Assembly (NCBI GenBank): GCA_048881705.1
Contig: JBHLSH010000024.1
Span: 1 to 45,228 of the forward strand
Source of the DNA: Candidatus Heimdallarchaeota archaeon
GTDB lineage: Archaea > Asgardarchaeota > Heimdallarchaeia > Hodarchaeales > Hodarchaeaceae
Direction: 5' to 3'
DNA length: 45,228 bases
This document shows positions 13,061-38,144 of this stretch, one piece after another. The first letter of the stretch is position 1. Each line of letters opens with the position of its first letter. The position numbers were made by a program, and so were the translations under genes. The notes under the pieces are model-generated. The model was not told where the DNA came from, did not search any database, and saw only the letters and a program-made list of their open reading frames with translations.

Positions 13061-15094
13061 ATGGAATCACAATCTAAGGTGCAGACGAGTTCGAAGGGAT
13101 ACCAATCAATGGGTTCGGCAACTCAATCTCGAAATAAAGTAGAAGAAATCAAGAAGCTAGCCAATCAAATCCTTTTTCACAAAAAGAAGTACTATGACGG
13201 CGAACCCGTTATTTCTGATGAAGCTTACGATTCGCTTGAAGATAAACTTCGAGAACTTGATCCAACCAATCCCGTTCTGTTTATGGTGGGAAGTAATGAA
13301 GCAGGCAAGGTGTTTCATGACCCCCCCATGCTTTCGAGTCAAAAAACAACGAATGTTGATGATGTCGTGAAATGGAGCGGGGGACGAGACCTCATGGTTG
13401 GAAATAAGATTGATGGAGTATCTTTATCATTAATATATGAAAACGGTAGGCTTATCCAAGCGGCCACCCGTGGAAATGGTACCATGGGAGATGATACGAC
13501 TATTGCAGCAATGAAAGTGGCTGCCATCCCTAAATCGATTCCTGAAATCACCCCTAGGATCAATATCAGGGGGGAGCTATTTATGCGGCTCTCTGAATTC
13601 GCCCGTATCAAAAAAACGGAATCAGATCAGTATAGCAGCCCGAGGAATCTAGCTGCGGGGACCATAAAGCAAAAAGATCTTAGCCTACTAGATAAGCGAG
13701 TTCTTTCGTTTAGTGCGTTTGAACTCCTCGGATTAAGGGATGAGGAAGCGACTCTGGAAGAGAAAGTTGGTCTCTTGCTCGAATGGGGGTTCGAGACCAC
13801 TGAATTCAAACTGTTAAGGTCTCCCTCAAAAGAGTCCATTGAAGCCCTTTATCGGAACACGGCCTCAGCACGAGGGAACCTTGATTTCGAAATCGATGGG
13901 TTGGTTTTAAAGTATAACGATGCCAAAGAACGTGCCAACGCGGGCGCAACTGCTCATCATCCCCGATGGATGATGGCATTAAAATTCAGAAGTCAGGGAA
14001 AACTATCAAAAGTTAACAGTATCACCTGGCAGGTTGGGAGATTAGGAACGATAACACCTGTGGCTGAATTGGAGCCAGTTGAAGTAATGGGAGCCGTTAT
14101 CCAAAGAGCTACATTACATAATGCTGATTTCCTGGAAACCCTTGATGTTGCACCAGGAGATAGCGTCTGGGTTATCAGATCCGGCGATGTTATACCGAAA
14201 ATCACTGAGGTGGTTGAAAAAGGCCCCAATAGCGCGTTACTGCCATCTCGATGCCCAAGCTGTGATTCAAAGCTACGACGTGACGGCGTTAATTTGCTCT
14301 GCAATAGTCCAATATGTCGAGACCGAGAAATCCAACGAATCCGTCACTGGATTAAAATTACAGATATAAAGGGCCTAGGCAGTAAGAACGTTGCCAAATT
14401 GTATGACAACGGGCTGATAAGACATTTCGCAGACCTTTATGACAAAAACCTGACCGAGAGAAAACTGGTTTCGCTATTAGGAAAAAACGGCTCCAAAATC
14501 TTCCAAGGTATTCAGGAAACTAAGAACATTCCCTTCCACCTGTTTCTTGCGGGTTTGGGTATTGAAACTTTAGGAAAACAGATGGCTAAAGTTCTCACAA
14601 ACCATTTTTCCACATACGAGGCTTTAAAAAATGTAACTGCTGATCAGTTAATGGAAATTGAGGGGATTTCAGAGATCACTGCTGGGAAGATCCTTGAAGG
14701 GATTCATGATCCTATGTTGGCTGATCACTTGCTTGAGAAAGGGGTCGTAATTTCTGAAGGTACGAGGATATTGAAGCGGGAGTCTCAACCCCCAACACGA
14801 CTAACCGATTTCTTTGGATCAAAAGATGAATCCCCAGAATTCGGAATTCGTCCTCAAGGATTAGAGCGGTTACGGGATTTACCCAAGGTTTATGTTACAG
14901 GTACAATTCCTGGGATGACAAAAAAAGAAGTTCAAACTTTTCTGGAGCAACATAATTACGAATGGGCTGCGATATCAAAAAAGCTGACACTTCTAATCGT
15001 CGGGGAAAAGCCAGGCAAAAATAAACTAGAAAAAGCGCAGAAATATGGTATTCCTCAAAAATCATGGGATGAATTCATTAAAGAACTCCGCTAG
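13061..15094 (+). CDS. ligA: NAD+-dependent DNA ligase
   Basis: Domain Ia YYDGEPVISDEAYD, adenylation motif KIDG, RGE, EIDGLVLK, ALKF, OB-fold VGRLGTITPVA and RSGDVIPKI, C4 zinc finger, HhH repeats, C-terminal BRCT. Confidence 0.97.
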   Translation: MESQSKVQTSSKGYQSMGSATQSRNKVEEIKKLANQILFHKKKYYDGEPVISDEAYDSLEDKLRELDPTNPVLFMVGSNEAGKVFHDPPMLSSQKTTNVDDVVKWSGGRDLMVGNKIDGVSLSLIYENGRLIQAATRGNGTMGDDTTIAAMKVAAIPKSIPEITPRINIRGELFMRLSEFARIKKTESDQYSSPRNLAAGTIKQKDLSLLDKRVLSFSAFELLGLRDEEATLEEKVGLLLEWGFETTEFKLLRSPSKESIEALYRNTASARGNLDFEIDGLVLKYNDAKERANAGATAHHPRWMMALKFRSQGKLSKVNSITWQVGRLGTITPVAELEPVEVMGAVIQRATLHNADFLETLDVAPGDSVWVIRSGDVIPKITEVVEKGPNSALLPSRCPSCDSKLRRDGVNLLCNSPICRDREIQRIRHWIKITDIKGLGSKNVAKLYDNGLIRHFADLYDKNLTERKLVSLLGKNGSKIFQGIQETKNIPFHLFLAGLGIETLGKQMAKVLTNHFSTYEALKNVTADQLMEIEGISEITAGKILEGIHDPMLADHLLEKGVVISEGTRILKRESQPPTRLTDFFGSKDESPEFGIRPQGLERLRDLPKVYVTGTIPGMTKKEVQTFLEQHNYEWAAISKKLTLLIVGEKPGKNKLEKAQKYGIPQKSWDEFIKELR

Positions 15095-15369: not shown

Positions 15370-17634
15370 ATGTCTTATGAGTATTATGGCGAAGAAGAAG
15401 ATATGCGTACTTGGAAGGCCATGCCTCTCCTACAGGCGCTTCTTGTATCTATTCTAATCCCTGTCGTTCTGGCAGTTGTATTTACCTTTGCCGGAGCAGC
15501 AACCAATCCACTTCTGCTACAAATTGAATTAATTCTGGTCGCTATCGCATTTTGTTCGATGGGGATTCTCACCCGTTCGAAATCACGTGGCCTCCTTAGC
15601 ATTATAGCAGCTCCGATCTCTTGGGGAATTCTATATTTAGCTGACACCCTTTCTGGTGGCTTTATTGTCAATCCATATGGACTGATTTCAGGACTTGCAG
15701 AGCCCTTGGCAGCGATTGCCCAAAGCCCTCTTCTCAGTGGATTAGCTGGGGATATGGGTATAATAACTCAGGTCGCAATTATCATTGACCTGATCATTGT
15801 TGAATTTTTTGCCTTTTTTCTGGGATTTTTCCTTGCGATGTTGGCAACAGGCTTATGGAAGAAGGACGGGAGTTTTGCGATTATTTCTGTCCCTTTTAAA
15901 CTAATTGCTGCTGCTTTTGTCATTGGAATTCTTGCCATAGTCCCCTTTGCGTACCATGGTATCGGAACCCTTGCTGATGGTGGAATATCATTGGGCGCAG
16001 GGGCTGCGGAAATCATGGGTATGTTTGGGGCCGATCTTGCCGGTGGCGGAGCACAAGCAGGTCTATCTTTGGATTTGAATAATGCGACAGTTCTTGCTGA
16101 ACTTAGTGCCGCAGCGGCACGAGCAGAAGCGTGGTTTCGGAGATCCAGTATTTCTTTCAAACAAGCCCAAGAGAATATTTTGATCCAAGCTGCCCTCAAT
16201 GCCCTGTTTCCTGAAGGTTCTGATTTTCGGGGCCTCAATATGCGTGAAATTACCTCTATACTTTCGATCTCTGACATTCTCGTCTCTATTTCCAGCGAAC
16301 TACCTGCGCTCTTAGCGGGGTACCAGAACTTTGCCAACGGATTCGACATTACCTTTTCAATCCTTGGTCAAACCAGTATAGGAGGCGGCCAAGGAGGGTC
16401 AATTGAGACCGTGGTTGCAACCTATGACCCATATTTTGTGGTTGGCCTCAATAACATGTCCGCCGCGCTCGATAATTTCACCGATGCTCAAGATGGAATT
16501 TTAGATGCAATTGCCGGAGCCAGTGCAATCATAAATCAAATCATTGTTGATCAAACAAGCGATTACGCAATAATTACGGATTTAATAGACGAAATGCAAG
16601 CGTTTTTCCCGATCCTTCTCGATGTAGCTCGTAGTGGAGTTTTCTTTTTGAATGGTACTTATAAGACCGCATTATCGATCGAAGATATAGGTGACAATGA
16701 TTTTGATGGGGCAAACTTCTGGTTAGACAGCGCAGCTCAGGATCTAGGTAGTGCGAATTCGACTCTTCAAAATGTGAGTACCTCTGCCCTTGATCCTAAT
16801 TCTCCTCTACCATTCTGGGGTACGGTGGAGATCATCAGAGATCTCGTGAATTTGCTGGGGTGGTTTACTCGCGCTGCTGCTAATACCACTGAATGTTATA
16901 CACGGATCGATGATGTACTTATAAGCCTGAATGCCCTGGATTTCCAGGGCACCTCGGTTCTTGCTACCAACTGGGATAATCTTTCAGCAAACGTATCAGC
17001 AGCCAACACTATTTTTGATGCAGCTCAGTTTAACATTGGTCAAGCTACCAGCCTCAGCGATCAATTAAGCAGTAAGAGCTATGGACCCGTTATTGATGGA
17101 AGCCTGGGTTCGGCAATTACCGACTTTTCAAATATGATGATGCAGTTTACTCATAATATCACTGAAGTCGATTACCTCTTGGATGCCTTGGAGTATACTG
17201 TGTTTTCTTTCCAATCATTCACAGAAGGATTTGCCTTGTTTAACAGTACCTTCGATTATGCCAGTAGCAACTCTGCGGACGGACCTACCTTCATATCACT
17301 CCTCACTGGCAATGCAACATGGAATCAAACAAAGGATAAATTTGGATACAGTATCGCCAACTCCTCCCTAGGATGGATTGCTATTGACACAACCACCGTC
17401 ATAGCTGGGAGTGTCCGGACATCATGGAAAAATATGCTTTACACACCGTCCTGGCCGATTACACCACCTACTGAACCCTCGATTGCTGGACTTTCTCAAA
17501 CAATCTTGGACCTAATGGCCGCAATAGAAACTCTTGCCGAATATGCTAATAAAGATTCGAATGCCGCATTGATCCAGACTGCTTTCGAGGGTATGGACAG
17601 CAATGACCCGTCTACCATTTTCGGTGGTGGATAG
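15370..17634 (+). CDS. Large membrane-anchored protein with a long acidic helical ectodomain
   Basis: About 5-6 N-terminal TM helices, then about 550 aa rich in Ala/Asp/Asn/Ser with many N-x-S/T sequons. Confidence 0.75.
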   Translation: MSYEYYGEEEDMRTWKAMPLLQALLVSILIPVVLAVVFTFAGAATNPLLLQIELILVAIAFCSMGILTRSKSRGLLSIIAAPISWGILYLADTLSGGFIVNPYGLISGLAEPLAAIAQSPLLSGLAGDMGIITQVAIIIDLIIVEFFAFFLGFFLAMLATGLWKKDGSFAIISVPFKLIAAAFVIGILAIVPFAYHGIGTLADGGISLGAGAAEIMGMFGADLAGGGAQAGLSLDLNNATVLAELSAAAARAEAWFRRSSISFKQAQENILIQAALNALFPEGSDFRGLNMREITSILSISDILVSISSELPALLAGYQNFANGFDITFSILGQTSIGGGQGGSIETVVATYDPYFVVGLNNMSAALDNFTDAQDGILDAIAGASAIINQIIVDQTSDYAIITDLIDEMQAFFPILLDVARSGVFFLNGTYKTALSIEDIGDNDFDGANFWLDSAAQDLGSANSTLQNVSTSALDPNSPLPFWGTVEIIRDLVNLLGWFTRAAANTTECYTRIDDVLISLNALDFQGTSVLATNWDNLSANVSAANTIFDAAQFNIGQATSLSDQLSSKSYGPVIDGSLGSAITDFSNMMMQFTHNITEVDYLLDALEYTVFSFQSFTEGFALFNSTFDYASSNSADGPTFISLLTGNATWNQTKDKFGYSIANSSLGWIAIDTTTVIAGSVRTSWKNMLYTPSWPITPPTEPSIAGLSQTILDLMAAIETLAEYANKDSNAALIQTAFEGMDSNDPSTIFGGG

Positions 17635-34661: not shown

Positions 34662-36233
34662 TCAGAAAAAATCAGTAAGTGATTTTTCTTTTTTCTTAAC
34701 CCTTTTTTTCTTCTTTTTACGATTTTCATGGAGTATTGGGGTTTTTGAGTTTTCTAAATCCTTAATATCAGTTGAAAGATGGTTTCTATCAACGCTCTCC
34801 GTTTTTTGCACATTCCCAGGTTTAAGTTCAGATATTTCTTGTTGGCTAGTAAGTTGTTGTAAGATACTAGGATCAATCTCCCGTCTGATGACCCTTTCCA
34901 CGGAAGGATAAAGCGTGCGGATGATCTTTTTTATTTCACGATTTGTTTCTTTTCGTTTGCAGAGATGATCAATCTCTCCATTCCATACTATTCTGGTCCG
35001 GCGTTTTCCTGGCGTAATATCAAAGAATCCAAAATCAAGGGCAAGATGCGCCGCCATTTCAGCGTTGTTTTCGAAAATAACCTTTATATACGGGAGATAA
35101 ATGTTCAAAGCGTCTTTTTCTGAAACATTACATACCTTGGCGACTTTTAGCGCAATTTTCCTTTTTCTTCTTAATCTAGAAAGGAGAATCCAATATTGTG
35201 GTACCTGGAGGCGAAAATCAGGAAATGTAGGGGAGTTTTCATGGGATGGAACGAAGCTTGCGAGATTTCGTGTAATGAAATTGTAAAAATAGCTCAGTTG
35301 GGTCCAAAACCGGTGTCTTTGGGCACGCGTAAGGGCCAAGTCAGCCACTGCGAGAATATCATAGATCTTAGCAATAGCGGTGTAGCTGTTTCGGGGTAGA
35401 TAATCAACGGCGAGATCGCGGAGAATAAGGAGTAGTTTACTATAGGTCATATCACTAAGCTGCCGAGTCAATTCATGAGCTTTGTCACCGTTGCGTGCAA
35501 TGAAAATAGTATCAAGAAATTCCTTGGTAGCAACCATTTGATCTCGAAAAGAAAGCACGCCAATATCTTCTTGTGTGATTTGATTCCTTTCAGACGCGAT
35601 TGTTTGAAAAGAATTGATCGATCCCCTGATGTCATTTTGGCTTTTTTCGATGATATCTAGAAGAACTTCGTCGGAGGCTTGAATCAATTCTGCATCCGCT
35701 ATTCTTCTTAATATACGTGCGATTTCTTGTGGTGACGGGTTTTCAAATTCCCGAAGTTCACAATGTCTTAGGAGGCTCTTGAATTTCTGCGGAGAAACAT
35801 CATTGGCTGTTAGAATAATTGGAACACGGGTGTGTTCTATGATTTCAATGATTTCTCGGATTCCACCTCTGTCTGCCGTTCCACTCAACCCGTCAATTTC
35901 GTCAATAAGTAAAATCTGTCCAATTTTGGCTTCTAAATCCTCCTTGAGAGATCTAGAAGACGAAGCCTGACGGATGGCTTTCAAGGATTTTTTATTACGT
36001 TTATCACTTGCATTTACCATCACAACATCAAAATTCAACGCTGTAGCAATGGCAAGGATTGAGCTCGTCTTTCCTATCCCAGGTGGACCATACAACAAAA
36101 GAGCCCTTTTCTCTAGTTTTTCCCGTAGGGATGGGTTACGAAAGCGATTTAAATATACCACAATAGAATTAACGCTCTTCTCATTTCCCACAATTTCAGA
36201 ACGCCGTGTCGGGGCATACTTCTGAACCCACAA
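34662..36233 (-). CDS. rfcL: Replication factor C large subunit
   Basis: MWVQKYAP, Walker A GPPGIGKTS, NASDKR, Walker B LIDEIDG; C-terminal PIP-like EKSLTDFF. Confidence 0.95.
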   Translation of the reverse strand: MWVQKYAPTRRSEIVGNEKSVNSIVVYLNRFRNPSLREKLEKRALLLYGPPGIGKTSSILAIATALNFDVVMVNASDKRNKKSLKAIRQASSSRSLKEDLEAKIGQILLIDEIDGLSGTADRGGIREIIEIIEHTRVPIILTANDVSPQKFKSLLRHCELREFENPSPQEIARILRRIADAELIQASDEVLLDIIEKSQNDIRGSINSFQTIASERNQITQEDIGVLSFRDQMVATKEFLDTIFIARNGDKAHELTRQLSDMTYSKLLLILRDLAVDYLPRNSYTAIAKIYDILAVADLALTRAQRHRFWTQLSYFYNFITRNLASFVPSHENSPTFPDFRLQVPQYWILLSRLRRKRKIALKVAKVCNVSEKDALNIYLPYIKVIFENNAEMAAHLALDFGFFDITPGKRRTRIVWNGEIDHLCKRKETNREIKKIIRTLYPSVERVIRREIDPSILQQLTSQQEISELKPGNVQKTESVDRNHLSTDIKDLENSKTPILHENRKKKKKRVKKKEKSLTDFF

Positions 36234-36245
36234 GGGTCGATCCCT

Positions 36246-37262
36246 CTATCTGCTTTGGGCTGCTACAATAAATTTCGCCAGAAACGCATCAAACTGGACC
36301 AGAGGATTACAACCAGCTGAGAGACGATAATCAATCTCTGATAACATTGATAACGCTGTAAACCGCACTGTATCTGATAATTTCTCATTTGGGAATCGAA
36401 TTAGTTCCCTATTTAGATATCTGACAATATCCTGTCCTGAGAGGCCGTACACTTCCATTAAATCTTGAAGCAGTTTCCTTGCGGTCAGGAAGTTGGGCTG
36501 GGGTTTGATCGCTTCTTGGATGATTTTCCTCACTTGATCGGGCTTCACATAGCCTTGAAGGGTCTGGATCGTTTTTGATGATATCTTAGTATCCATTACG
36601 GAGGCGGCCTGAAGCACGTTGATAGCCTGCCGCATATCTCCTTCAGAACTATCGTATAGTGCCTCTAATGCCTCCTCATCTACTGCTAAGTTCTTTTTGT
36701 CAGCAATAAATCGTAAGCGTTCCATAACTTCCTCTTTTTCTAGATTACGGAACCGAAAAATGGCACATCGAGATTGAATTGGGGGGATGATCCTCGAACT
36801 GTAATTGCAGATCAAAATAAAACGGGTAAGCGCATTGTATTGCTCCATAGTTCGACGTAATGCATGTTGGGCTTCGCTGGTCATTTGATCCGCTTCATCT
36901 AGAATAATGATTTTGAAGGTTGCGGATCCTGAGGGGATGATTCGGGCAAAATTTTTGATATCTTCACGAACTACTCCGATTCCTCTGTCATCCGAAGCAT
37001 TTAATCTTTTAACGTTCGCCGTTCGATCCCCAGATTGATATATACCATTAACTATGGCCTCAGCAGTCGTAGTTTTTCCTACGCCAGGAGGACCAGCGAA
37101 AAGCATGTGGGGGAAATCAACGCGACGTACGAATTGCGTGATTCGCTCTATAATTCCCACTTGGCCTACGATGTCGGCTAAATTCCGCGGACGGAAAGAC
37201 TCAGTCCACATTCGCTCGATAGTAACCACTATTTCACCCTGATACTCTAAAGGTGGAGACAC
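36246..37262 (-). CDS. rfcS: Replication factor C small subunit
   Basis: WTESFRP, GPPGVGKTT, LNASDDRGI, ILDEADQM, QSRC, GDMRQAIN. Confidence 0.96.
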   Translation of the reverse strand: MSPPLEYQGEIVVTIERMWTESFRPRNLADIVGQVGIIERITQFVRRVDFPHMLFAGPPGVGKTTTAEAIVNGIYQSGDRTANVKRLNASDDRGIGVVREDIKNFARIIPSGSATFKIIILDEADQMTSEAQHALRRTMEQYNALTRFILICNYSSRIIPPIQSRCAIFRFRNLEKEEVMERLRFIADKKNLAVDEEALEALYDSSEGDMRQAINVLQAASVMDTKISSKTIQTLQGYVKPDQVRKIIQEAIKPQPNFLTARKLLQDLMEVYGLSGQDIVRYLNRELIRFPNEKLSDTVRFTALSMLSEIDYRLSAGCNPLVQFDAFLAKFIVAAQSR

Positions 37263-37277
37263 GAATGAATTCTATAG

Positions 37278-38144
37278 CTATTCTTCGTCTTCATTTTCTT
37301 CTTCATAGTCCTCCCACTCTTCGTCATCATCAGAGGATCCTTCTTCTTCGTACTCTTCTGATTCGTAATCCTGTTGCATGGGAGCAAGGAGGTATCCTAG
37401 GGCAAGATTATTCTCATATTGATACAACAGTTTTAGGGGTTTATCAGAATCGAACCATAGTTTGGCCGAAGCAAAGCTGTTGTCCACTAGAATGATATTT
37501 TTAAAGTAGTCAGTCGGATACATCGACTCGGCGGCTTTATCCATAGAAATACTTGTGAGTGCCGAATTACCCTGCTGATCTACTTCCATTTCAACACTGA
37601 CCTCCTTTTTATCATGTGAACTGCTAAAGATCATTTTTCCTGCATCTGCTCGAATACTTACAAGATCCCCAACAATCGAAACATCACGTACAATTTCAGA
37701 AAGGGCTCCTCCAACTAGCTCGGCTGTTACGCCGAAATCCAATTCCGAAGGATCGGGTAGTTGGGTTTCTTCTGGCGCTGAAAGGGGAAGAATAAAGTCC
37801 CTTGTTCCCCGCCCCGTATATGCTAATTTGAGGACATCGTTGTTCTCATCAAGCTCTAGTGTAAGAATATCATCTTTCCTGGCCCTCTGAAGCACCTTCT
37901 TGAGGTCCTGCATATGTACCGCTATAACGTATTCTTTATCACAGGTAAAGCTGCCCGCGCCTGTGAAGTATGAGGGGTGGATTTTAAGGTCGACCATGGC
38001 AAAACGACCTTTATCCATGTTTCTGAGGAGGATTCCATCTTGCGGCCGGATCACAAATGTCCCTTCATCTTCGAGGATCGCCGCTGCAGCGTTTAACACT
38101 TTTGAAAACATATCTAATTGCTCTATCTCAATACGGAGTGTCAC
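37278..38144 (-). CDS. pcn: DNA sliding clamp PCNA with an extended acidic C-terminal tail
   Basis: PCNA pattern (GILLRNMDKGRFAMVDL, DKPLKLLY, GYLLAP); directly upstream of rfcS. Confidence 0.9.
   Translation of the reverse strand: MTLRIEIEQLDMFSKVLNAAAAILEDEGTFVIRPQDGILLRNMDKGRFAMVDLKIHPSYFTGAGSFTCDKEYVIAVHMQDLKKVLQRARKDDILTLELDENNDVLKLAYTGRGTRDFILPLSAPEETQLPDPSELDFGVTAELVGGALSEIVRDVSIVGDLVSIRADAGKMIFSSSHDKKEVSVEMEVDQQGNSALTSISMDKAAESMYPTDYFKNIILVDNSFASAKLWFDSDKPLKLLYQYENNLALGYLLAPMQQDYESEEYEEEGSSDDDEEWEDYEEENEDEE

Follow-up and report, generated by a model that had tools for sequence, protein, structure and literature searches.

Introduction

Core replication proteins are thought to be resistant to horizontal replacement, since they must fit into multi-protein machines. 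The Hodarchaeales are among the archaeal group that is closest to eukaryotes. Bacterial-type NAD+-dependent DNA ligases have been acquired by archaea; in Haloferax volcanii such a protein, LigN, can supply essential ligase function redundantly with the ATP-dependent ligase (PMC7776575, PMC1684257). The paper on the biochemistry of LigN makes no mention of PCNA or of a PCNA-interacting peptide (PIP) (PMC1684257). The ATP-dependent ligase of Pyrococcus furiosus has a PCNA-binding loop with the sequence QKSFF (PMC13136779). As far as we found, a PIP on an archaeal NAD+ ligase has not been described in the literature, subscription journals lying outside our coverage. Here we describe the NAD+-dependent ligase LigA encoded in a 45,228-nucleotide stretch of DNA from a member of the Hodarchaeales, Candidatus Heimdallarchaeota archaeon (assembly GCA_048881705.1, contig JBHLSH010000024.1, referred to below as the window).

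The linker between the helix-hairpin-helix (HhH) and BRCT domains of this LigA contains the motif RLTDFF. On the sequence evidence this is most likely a PIP-type motif without the usual glutamine, held on a disordered tether of about 44 residues, which would dock in the hydrophobic pocket of PCNA and so recruit the ligase.

Results

A conserved motif in an extended linker

LigA is a 677-residue protein encoded at 13061..15094 on the forward strand, identified by translation of the open reading frame (ORF) and by Pfam and NCBIfam matches. Database models use an alternative start at M17 (nucleotide 13109), which gives 661 residues. Residues 566-609 (14756..14887, forward strand) form a lineage-specific linker, which in the alignment is about 29 residues longer than its bacterial counterparts: the linker columns hold 44 residues in this LigA, compared with no more than 22 (median 15) in 65 named bacteria. 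An earlier note on this DNA had described an insertion of roughly 40 residues between the HhH and BRCT domains; the place is right, the length relative to bacteria is closer to 29. Within the linker is the PIP-like motif R580-L-T-D-F-F585 (14798..14815, forward strand), whose conserved core in the alignment is L581, F584 and F585. Nucleotides 14786-14815 encode Q576 to F585, QPPTRLTDFF.

The genome under study is referred to as G000 and the other G numbers denote related Heimdall-class genomes, all of them metagenome-assembled genomes (MAGs); G000 is 90.9% complete and its nearest relative, G001, 94%. A first alignment contained 120 LigA homologs, those with a named source coming mostly from Hodarchaeota, Hodarchaeales, Heimdallarchaeota or Kariarchaeaceae. 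The segment between the HhH and BRCT domains is hypervariable in both length and sequence in this alignment, with the exception of a single register consisting of a K/R-rich lead-in, a leucine, two polar residues, F/Y/W and then I/L/F/W. Linker statistics were calculated on a set of 184 sequences (114 of Asgard type and 70 outgroup representatives, drawn from a library of 1.8 billion proteins), scoring the motif as [LIM]xx[FYW][FLIWYM] in one aligned register and taking linkers of at least 30 residues as long. The motif is carried by 82 of the 83 long linkers and by none of the 101 short ones. In composition-matched shuffles of each linker it appears in 4.5%, and aromatic residues make up 3.7% of linker residues outside the motif. 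Inserts almost never lack the motif, and carrying it appears to be what the insert is there for. The 82 motifs have leucine in every case, followed by [DTA], [DQ], F (71), Y (7) or W (4), and finally I (33), L (29), F (14) or W (6), with K/R at positions -8 to -3. L581 is also invariant in an alignment of 80 LigA sequences, and no full-length LigA of the genus lacks the motif.

The motif has the aliphatic residue of a canonical PIP (Q-x-x-[LIVM]-x-x-[FY]-[FY]) at position 4 and the aromatic residue at position 7; position 8 is phenylalanine in this genome and varies among I, L, F and W across orthologs. The glutamine of position 1 is absent: three residues before the leucine is P578, and Q576 lies two residues further upstream. 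The earlier note called the motif non-canonical on this account, which holds. Its Q576 does not belong to the motif, the corresponding position -5 being unconserved (K, R, E, Q or V in orthologs).

Neither insert nor motif is found in the 70 outgroup representatives, and the motif is absent from all 65 LigA sequences of named bacteria, a separately fetched set covering many phyla. Named MAGs with the motif include Hodarchaeota, Candidatus Hodarchaeum mangrovi, Heimdallarchaeota and Kariarchaeota. A LigA tree was built with FastTree after removing the linker columns. All motif-bearing LigA fall in one clade of 116 tips (support 99), which holds every Asgard-type sequence. The distribution inside this clade is a mosaic, requiring at least 11 changes of state, or 15 losses if the motif was gained once; the deep nodes are poorly supported, which makes these numbers approximate. 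All members of the Hodarchaeales-type subclade have the motif, and several Heimdall-type subclades have linkers of 13-25 residues without it. Conservation of the insert and its motif shows that they are under selection in the Asgard LigA clade.

A separate metagenomic LigA clade (P0113, P0116, P0118-P0120 and P0122; locus L182), one member of which comes from soil, has linkers of 55-62 residues. Its members share a basic run and an LxxF[LI] motif.

LigA as a member of the NAD+-dependent ligase family

LigA scores 482.5 bits against the equivalog model TIGR00575, above the cut-off of 444.45. The Pfam domains are the adenylation domain (PF01653, residues 83-311, E-value 1.5e-49), the OB domain (PF03120, 316-387), the HhH region (PF12826/PF14520, 495-551) and the BRCT domain (PF00533, 610-665). 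The adenylation motif KxDG (K116, D118, G119) and a Cys4 zinc finger (C398, C401, C414 and C419) are invariant across the 80 aligned LigA sequences. A precomputed PF22745 (Nlig-Ia) annotation exists for the protein, placing domain Ia in it, and the domain Ia residues Y44, Y45, D53, Y56 and D57 show conservation of 90% or more in the same alignment. By every defining feature examined LigA is thus a bona fide member of the family, with the use of NAD+ itself predicted from these features.

The best solved relatives are the bacterial structures 1V9P, 1DGS and 2OWO (E-values of 1e-76 to 1e-81), and the alignments to them stop at the HhH domain. Even the closest sequences from bacteria share just 30-38% identity with LigA, and the acquisition is accordingly old.

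Predicted structure

An AlphaFold2 model of LigA was made from 80 sequences, it has a mean pLDDT (the program's per-residue confidence) of 88.9 and all of the domains are confident. The pLDDT falls below 50 at residues 568-579 and 585-605. The only helix that DSSP places between these segments is three residues long (581-583, L-T-D), and the first strand of the BRCT domain starts at residue 609. The motif is not docked onto any LigA domain in the model. It is predicted to be an exposed short helical turn on a flexible tether, as expected of the 3-10 turn of a PIP-type motif.

We also predicted the complex of PCNA (residues 1-262) with LigA residues 560-612, in three runs with three controls. 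The median score was 0.51, compared with 0.00 for the best control; the partner pLDDT was about 40 and the agreement in contacts between runs at least 46%. In calibration 58 of 80 solved complexes and 2 of 110 mismatched pairs passed the mark, scores of 0.60 or below being seen in just seven of those 80 solved complexes and in both of the mismatches that passed. The result was graded as weak support. Many complexes of PCNA with peptides have already been solved, the pass may therefore reflect recall, and we do not count the prediction as evidence.

PCNA, RFC and C-terminal tails in the same genome

The window also contains an operon (38144-34662, reverse strand) of PCNA and the two subunits of its loader, RFC. 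PCNA, the proposed docking partner, was identified by profile match at 37278..38144, followed by the RFC small subunit at 36246..37262 (AAA and Rep_fac_C domains) and the RFC large subunit (RFC-L) at 34662..36233 (NF003229, 285.1 against a cut-off of 280), all on the reverse strand. This PCNA is the only clamp detected in G000, and a search of this 90.9% complete genome for the beta-clamp (PF00712) found none. PCNA has a hyperacidic C-terminal tail of 33 residues (37281-37379, reverse strand), of which 21 are D or E, interspersed with W and Y. All of the Hodarchaeales-type PCNAs have an acidic tail, of 27-42 residues and about 65% D/E, whereas ordinary PCNAs stop 4-7 residues past the LAP strand. 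The basic runs found ahead of PIP motifs in the lineage are possible partners of this tail.

RFC-L ends in EKSLTDFF followed by the stop codon, the terminal PIP SLTDFF (34665-34682, reverse strand) being preceded by a polybasic run (34683-34721, reverse strand). The earlier note had pointed to LTDFF in both LigA and RFC-L; the translations bear this out, and Pfam and NCBIfam agree on the identity of the two proteins. In ORFs of at least 100 residues from this genome (about 1.2 million residues) LTDFF occurs four times, with about one occurrence expected, the carriers being LigA, RFC-L, Nre and one unknown protein. The five-letter identity alone is weak evidence, the strength comes from conservation. 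Without exception, the RFC-L orthologs of 20 sister genomes have a basic run and then [ST]-L-[TSA]-[DE]-[FY]-[FL] directly before the stop. The LigA motifs of sister genomes (for example GLDQFL, NLLDFI, SLMDFL) belong to the same class as the RFC-L tails (for example TLTDFL, TLSEFF) and are usually not identical to them. The identity of the two motifs claimed in the earlier note is therefore true of this genome and not of its sisters, and it represents convergence on a consensus. Since the two motifs differ within sister genomes, we rejected both a copying of the RFC-L motif into LigA and a co-variation of the two.

The same class of motif is found at the C-termini of other proteins. ORFs of at least 150 residues were searched for a loose motif within the last 14 residues, and 20 with a terminal motif and a basic or polar lead-in were annotated. 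They include Fen1 (SLDQFF), two PolB proteins (NLMEFFT and KLDQFL), a Y-family polymerase (SLERFFN), UDG (GLDRFFL), an SRAP/HMCES-like protein (TLSEFF) and Nre (RLTDFF and six further residues). The C-terminal PIP of Nre is documented (PMC7776575). Further tails with the motif belong to MGMT, four DNA methylases, a DUF72 protein and a pair consisting of a radical-SAM/HhH protein and a DUF4130 protein. The rest belong to a CDC48 ATPase (ending in LKDYL), a TPR protein, the beta subunit of pyruvate-ferredoxin oxidoreductase and two proteins without a family. None of the surveyed tails has the canonical glutamine spacing, so the Gln-less PIP is the norm in this lineage. The LigA motif matches the consensus of these client families, which is a basic or polar lead-in and L-x-x-[FYW]-[FLIW] in a disordered segment.

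The methyltransferase, DUF72 and radical-SAM/HhH with DUF4130 tails are encoded on contigs C29, C10, C77, C17, C36 and C7 (loci L051, L044, L056, L047, L052, L042 and L043), and they suggest that the list of PCNA clients is unusually broad in this lineage.

At least eight genomes of the genus (this one, G001, G002, G004, G008, G010, G011 and G012) have LigA 20-25 kb away from the operon of PCNA, RFC small subunit and RFC-L. The proximity is probably a matter of conserved gene order, not of a functional cluster. Immediately before LigA lies a dCMP/cytidine deaminase (PF00383, 11787-12233), encoded on the reverse strand, and directly downstream is a 754-residue ORF (15370-17634, forward strand) with no Pfam match.

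DNA ligases of related genomes

The DNA-binding domain typical of Lig1, the ATP-dependent ligase (PF04675), was detected in 31 of the 41 Heimdall-class genomes searched and was not found in G000, G001, G002, G004, G005, G009, G014, G018 and G020. In five of these (G002, G005, G014, G018 and G020) no ATP ligase of any kind was found with PF04675, with PF01068 or with a Lig1 protein query from the same genus. The sole PF01068 matches in G002, G014 and G018 are weak and lie inside the LigA gene, and there are none in G005 and G020. The completeness values of the five genomes, from highest to lowest, are 93, 91, 86, 84 and 74%. The chance of missing an ATP ligase in all of them is about 1e-5 to 1e-4 if misses are independent; these are related MAGs, and the figure is indicative. 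A motif-bearing LigA is present in all five, as well as in G000 and G001. Genomes whose full-length LigA lacks the insert (G032 and G036), and those without a detected LigA, have PF04675 or, in the case of G039, a strong PF01068 match. The exception is G009 (80% complete), in which neither ligase was detected. LigA may thus be the only DNA ligase of the five sister genomes.

The sole ATP ligase of G000 (contig C52:10222-13262; L181:5823-8863) is atypical. It is a protein of 646 residues in which only the catalytic domain PF01068 was detected; it falls below every curated NCBIfam cut-off, and a Lig1-type DNA-binding or OB domain was undetected. Its gene overlaps an upstream gene for a KaiC/RadA-like ATPase by 10 nucleotides, and genes for RtcA, a Hel308-like helicase and EndoIII are nearby. 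Apart from a broken remnant in G020, this ligase is confined to G000, G001, G004 and G015. We considered whether it could be a fast-evolving ortholog of Lig1 and rejected this, since the distribution is sporadic and the protein stands beside a canonical Lig1 in G015. The presence of both in G015 indicates an accessory enzyme, which may be a dedicated repair module.

In genomes that have Lig1, this enzyme too carries a PIP-like motif, such as QQQLGTFF or KSLDSYF, around residues 85-108, where the P. furiosus ligase has its PCNA-binding QKSFF loop (PMC13136779). A ligase coupled to the clamp is thus the rule in this lineage.

Discussion

We propose that the LigA motif would act in the same way as the C-terminal tails of RFC-L, Fen1, PolB and Nre in this genome. 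After RFC has loaded PCNA, LigA would be tethered by the turn containing L581, F584 and F585, inserted in the pocket under the interdomain connector loop of one PCNA subunit. The basic residues upstream, which are stronger in most orthologs, would probably engage the hyperacidic tail of PCNA. A tether of about 44 residues would let the core of the ligase (domain Ia and the nucleotidyltransferase, OB, zinc finger and HhH domains) encircle the nick while the BRCT domain stays mobile. As in the tool-belt model of archaea and eukaryotes, LigA would share the three pockets of PCNA with competing clients such as Fen1 and PolB, and it would be recruited to nicks on PCNA-loaded DNA during the maturation of Okazaki fragments and the sealing of repair patches. 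From sequence we infer that LigA binds PCNA, that its ligation would be stimulated and that it may act at the replication fork; a replicative role is plausible given that an acquired NAD+ ligase can supply essential function in Haloferax. The earlier note had suggested that a bacterial-type ligase was fitted with a host-style clamp motif. This idea gains support from conservation of the motif in close orthologs (all full-length LigA of the genus, and all but one of the long linkers), its restriction to one clade with no occurrence in bacterial relatives, its exposure on a tether of low pLDDT around a short helical turn and its match to the host consensus.

Several points weigh against this interpretation. 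The canonical glutamine is missing and many orthologs have I or L in place of an aromatic residue at the last position, so that the affinity may be low or the partner different. In the G000 protein only 3 of the 11 residues upstream of the motif are basic, fewer than in most orthologs. Within the Asgard clade the motif has undergone at least 11 gains or losses, which implies that it is dispensable where Lig1 is kept. All of the genomes are MAGs, and a failure to find an ATP ligase in them is no proof of its absence.

The resemblance to a PIP could in principle be a coincidence, the insert being a neutral expansion of low complexity. LTDFF is after all a five-residue match seen four times where about one is expected, and the linker is otherwise hypervariable and often lost. 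We regard this as extremely improbable, as the motif stands in register in 82 of 83 inserts compared with 4.5% of shuffles, its leucine is invariant and aromatic residues elsewhere amount to 3.7%. Conservation of this kind shows selection on the motif and does not identify its partner. The motif might instead bind another hub, such as RPA, the clamp loader or Hel308, or act as an intramolecular latch that places the BRCT domain against the core; the frequent I or L at the last position and the weak grade of the PCNA complex prediction are compatible with this. Such a partner seems improbable to us. In spacing, basic lead-in and disordered context the motif agrees with the tails of the known PCNA-client families of this genome, AlphaFold2 docks the motif on no LigA domain, and PCNA is to our knowledge the only archaeal hub for motifs of this class.

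A further possibility accepts the PIP and confines LigA to PCNA-coupled repair, in base or nucleotide excision repair patches, with replication left to an ATP ligase that was missed or has diverged. The genomes are 74-94% complete MAGs, and the atypical ATP ligase is encoded in G000, G001, G004 and G015, its gene sharing an operon with that of a KaiC-like ATPase. Against this, three different queries found no ATP ligase in the five sister genomes, and the atypical ligase is below curated cut-offs, without a detectable Lig1-type DNA-binding or OB domain, sporadic, and found beside Lig1 in G015. The NAD+ ligase of Haloferax, moreover, can supply the essential ligase function (PMC7776575). On balance we find a repair-only LigA rather unlikely. 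We suggest tentatively that in two or more lineages of the Hodarchaeales the horizontally acquired NAD+ ligase, having gained a PCNA-binding peptide, took the place of the ancestral ATP-dependent Lig1 as the only or main replicative ligase; this part of the proposal could well be wrong.

A bacterial ligase has apparently been made compatible with a eukaryote-like archaeal clamp by a disordered insert of about 30 residues and a motif of five, and this may have allowed the native ATP-dependent ligase to be lost in some lineages. The locus is a concrete and testable case in which gain of a short linear motif would enable non-orthologous gene displacement in the replisome. If Lig1 was indeed displaced, a single gain of this kind can suffice in a replisome centred on PCNA. 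The motif has come and gone repeatedly alongside the presence or absence of Lig1, which amounts to a natural experiment. What is new here is the tree-based restriction and the gain and loss mosaic, the control with named bacteria, the analysis of the ligase complement and the PIP-like motif on Lig1 of sister genomes.

Comparison with known systems

The bacterial LigA proteins of Escherichia coli (2OWO) and Thermus filiformis (1V9P and 1DGS) have the same domain Ia, KxDG motif, OB domain, Cys4 zinc finger, HhH and BRCT domains as the archaeal protein, and lack its disordered insert of about 29 residues with the PIP-like motif. The host of the archaeal LigA has PCNA and no beta-clamp that we could find, in contrast to the setting of the bacterial enzymes. 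Haloferax LigN is likewise a bacterial-type NAD+ ligase taken up by an archaeon; Haloferax has retained an ATP ligase beside it, in contrast to several Hodarchaeales genomes in which none was found.

The PIP of archaeal RFC-L belongs to the same motif class, and in this genome it shares the LTDFF core and the preceding basic residues with LigA. It forms the very end of the protein and follows a much stronger polybasic run, whereas the LigA motif is internal, and in sister genomes the two are not identical.

The ATP-dependent ligases follow the same logic, in which a flexible peptide with hydrophobic and aromatic residues tethers the sealing enzyme to the clamp. Examples are the QKSFF loop of P. 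furiosus, the binding of the Sulfolobus solfataricus ligase to PCNA3 and the N-terminal PIP of human LIG1, and Lig1 of the sister genomes has such a motif near residue 100, like the P. furiosus ligase (PMC13136779). LigA comes from another branch of the superfamily and uses another cofactor, and its motif is in a C-terminal linker between domains rather than in the N-terminus or the DNA-binding domain. The LigA motif was acquired independently of the PIPs of ATP-dependent ligases, after horizontal transfer.

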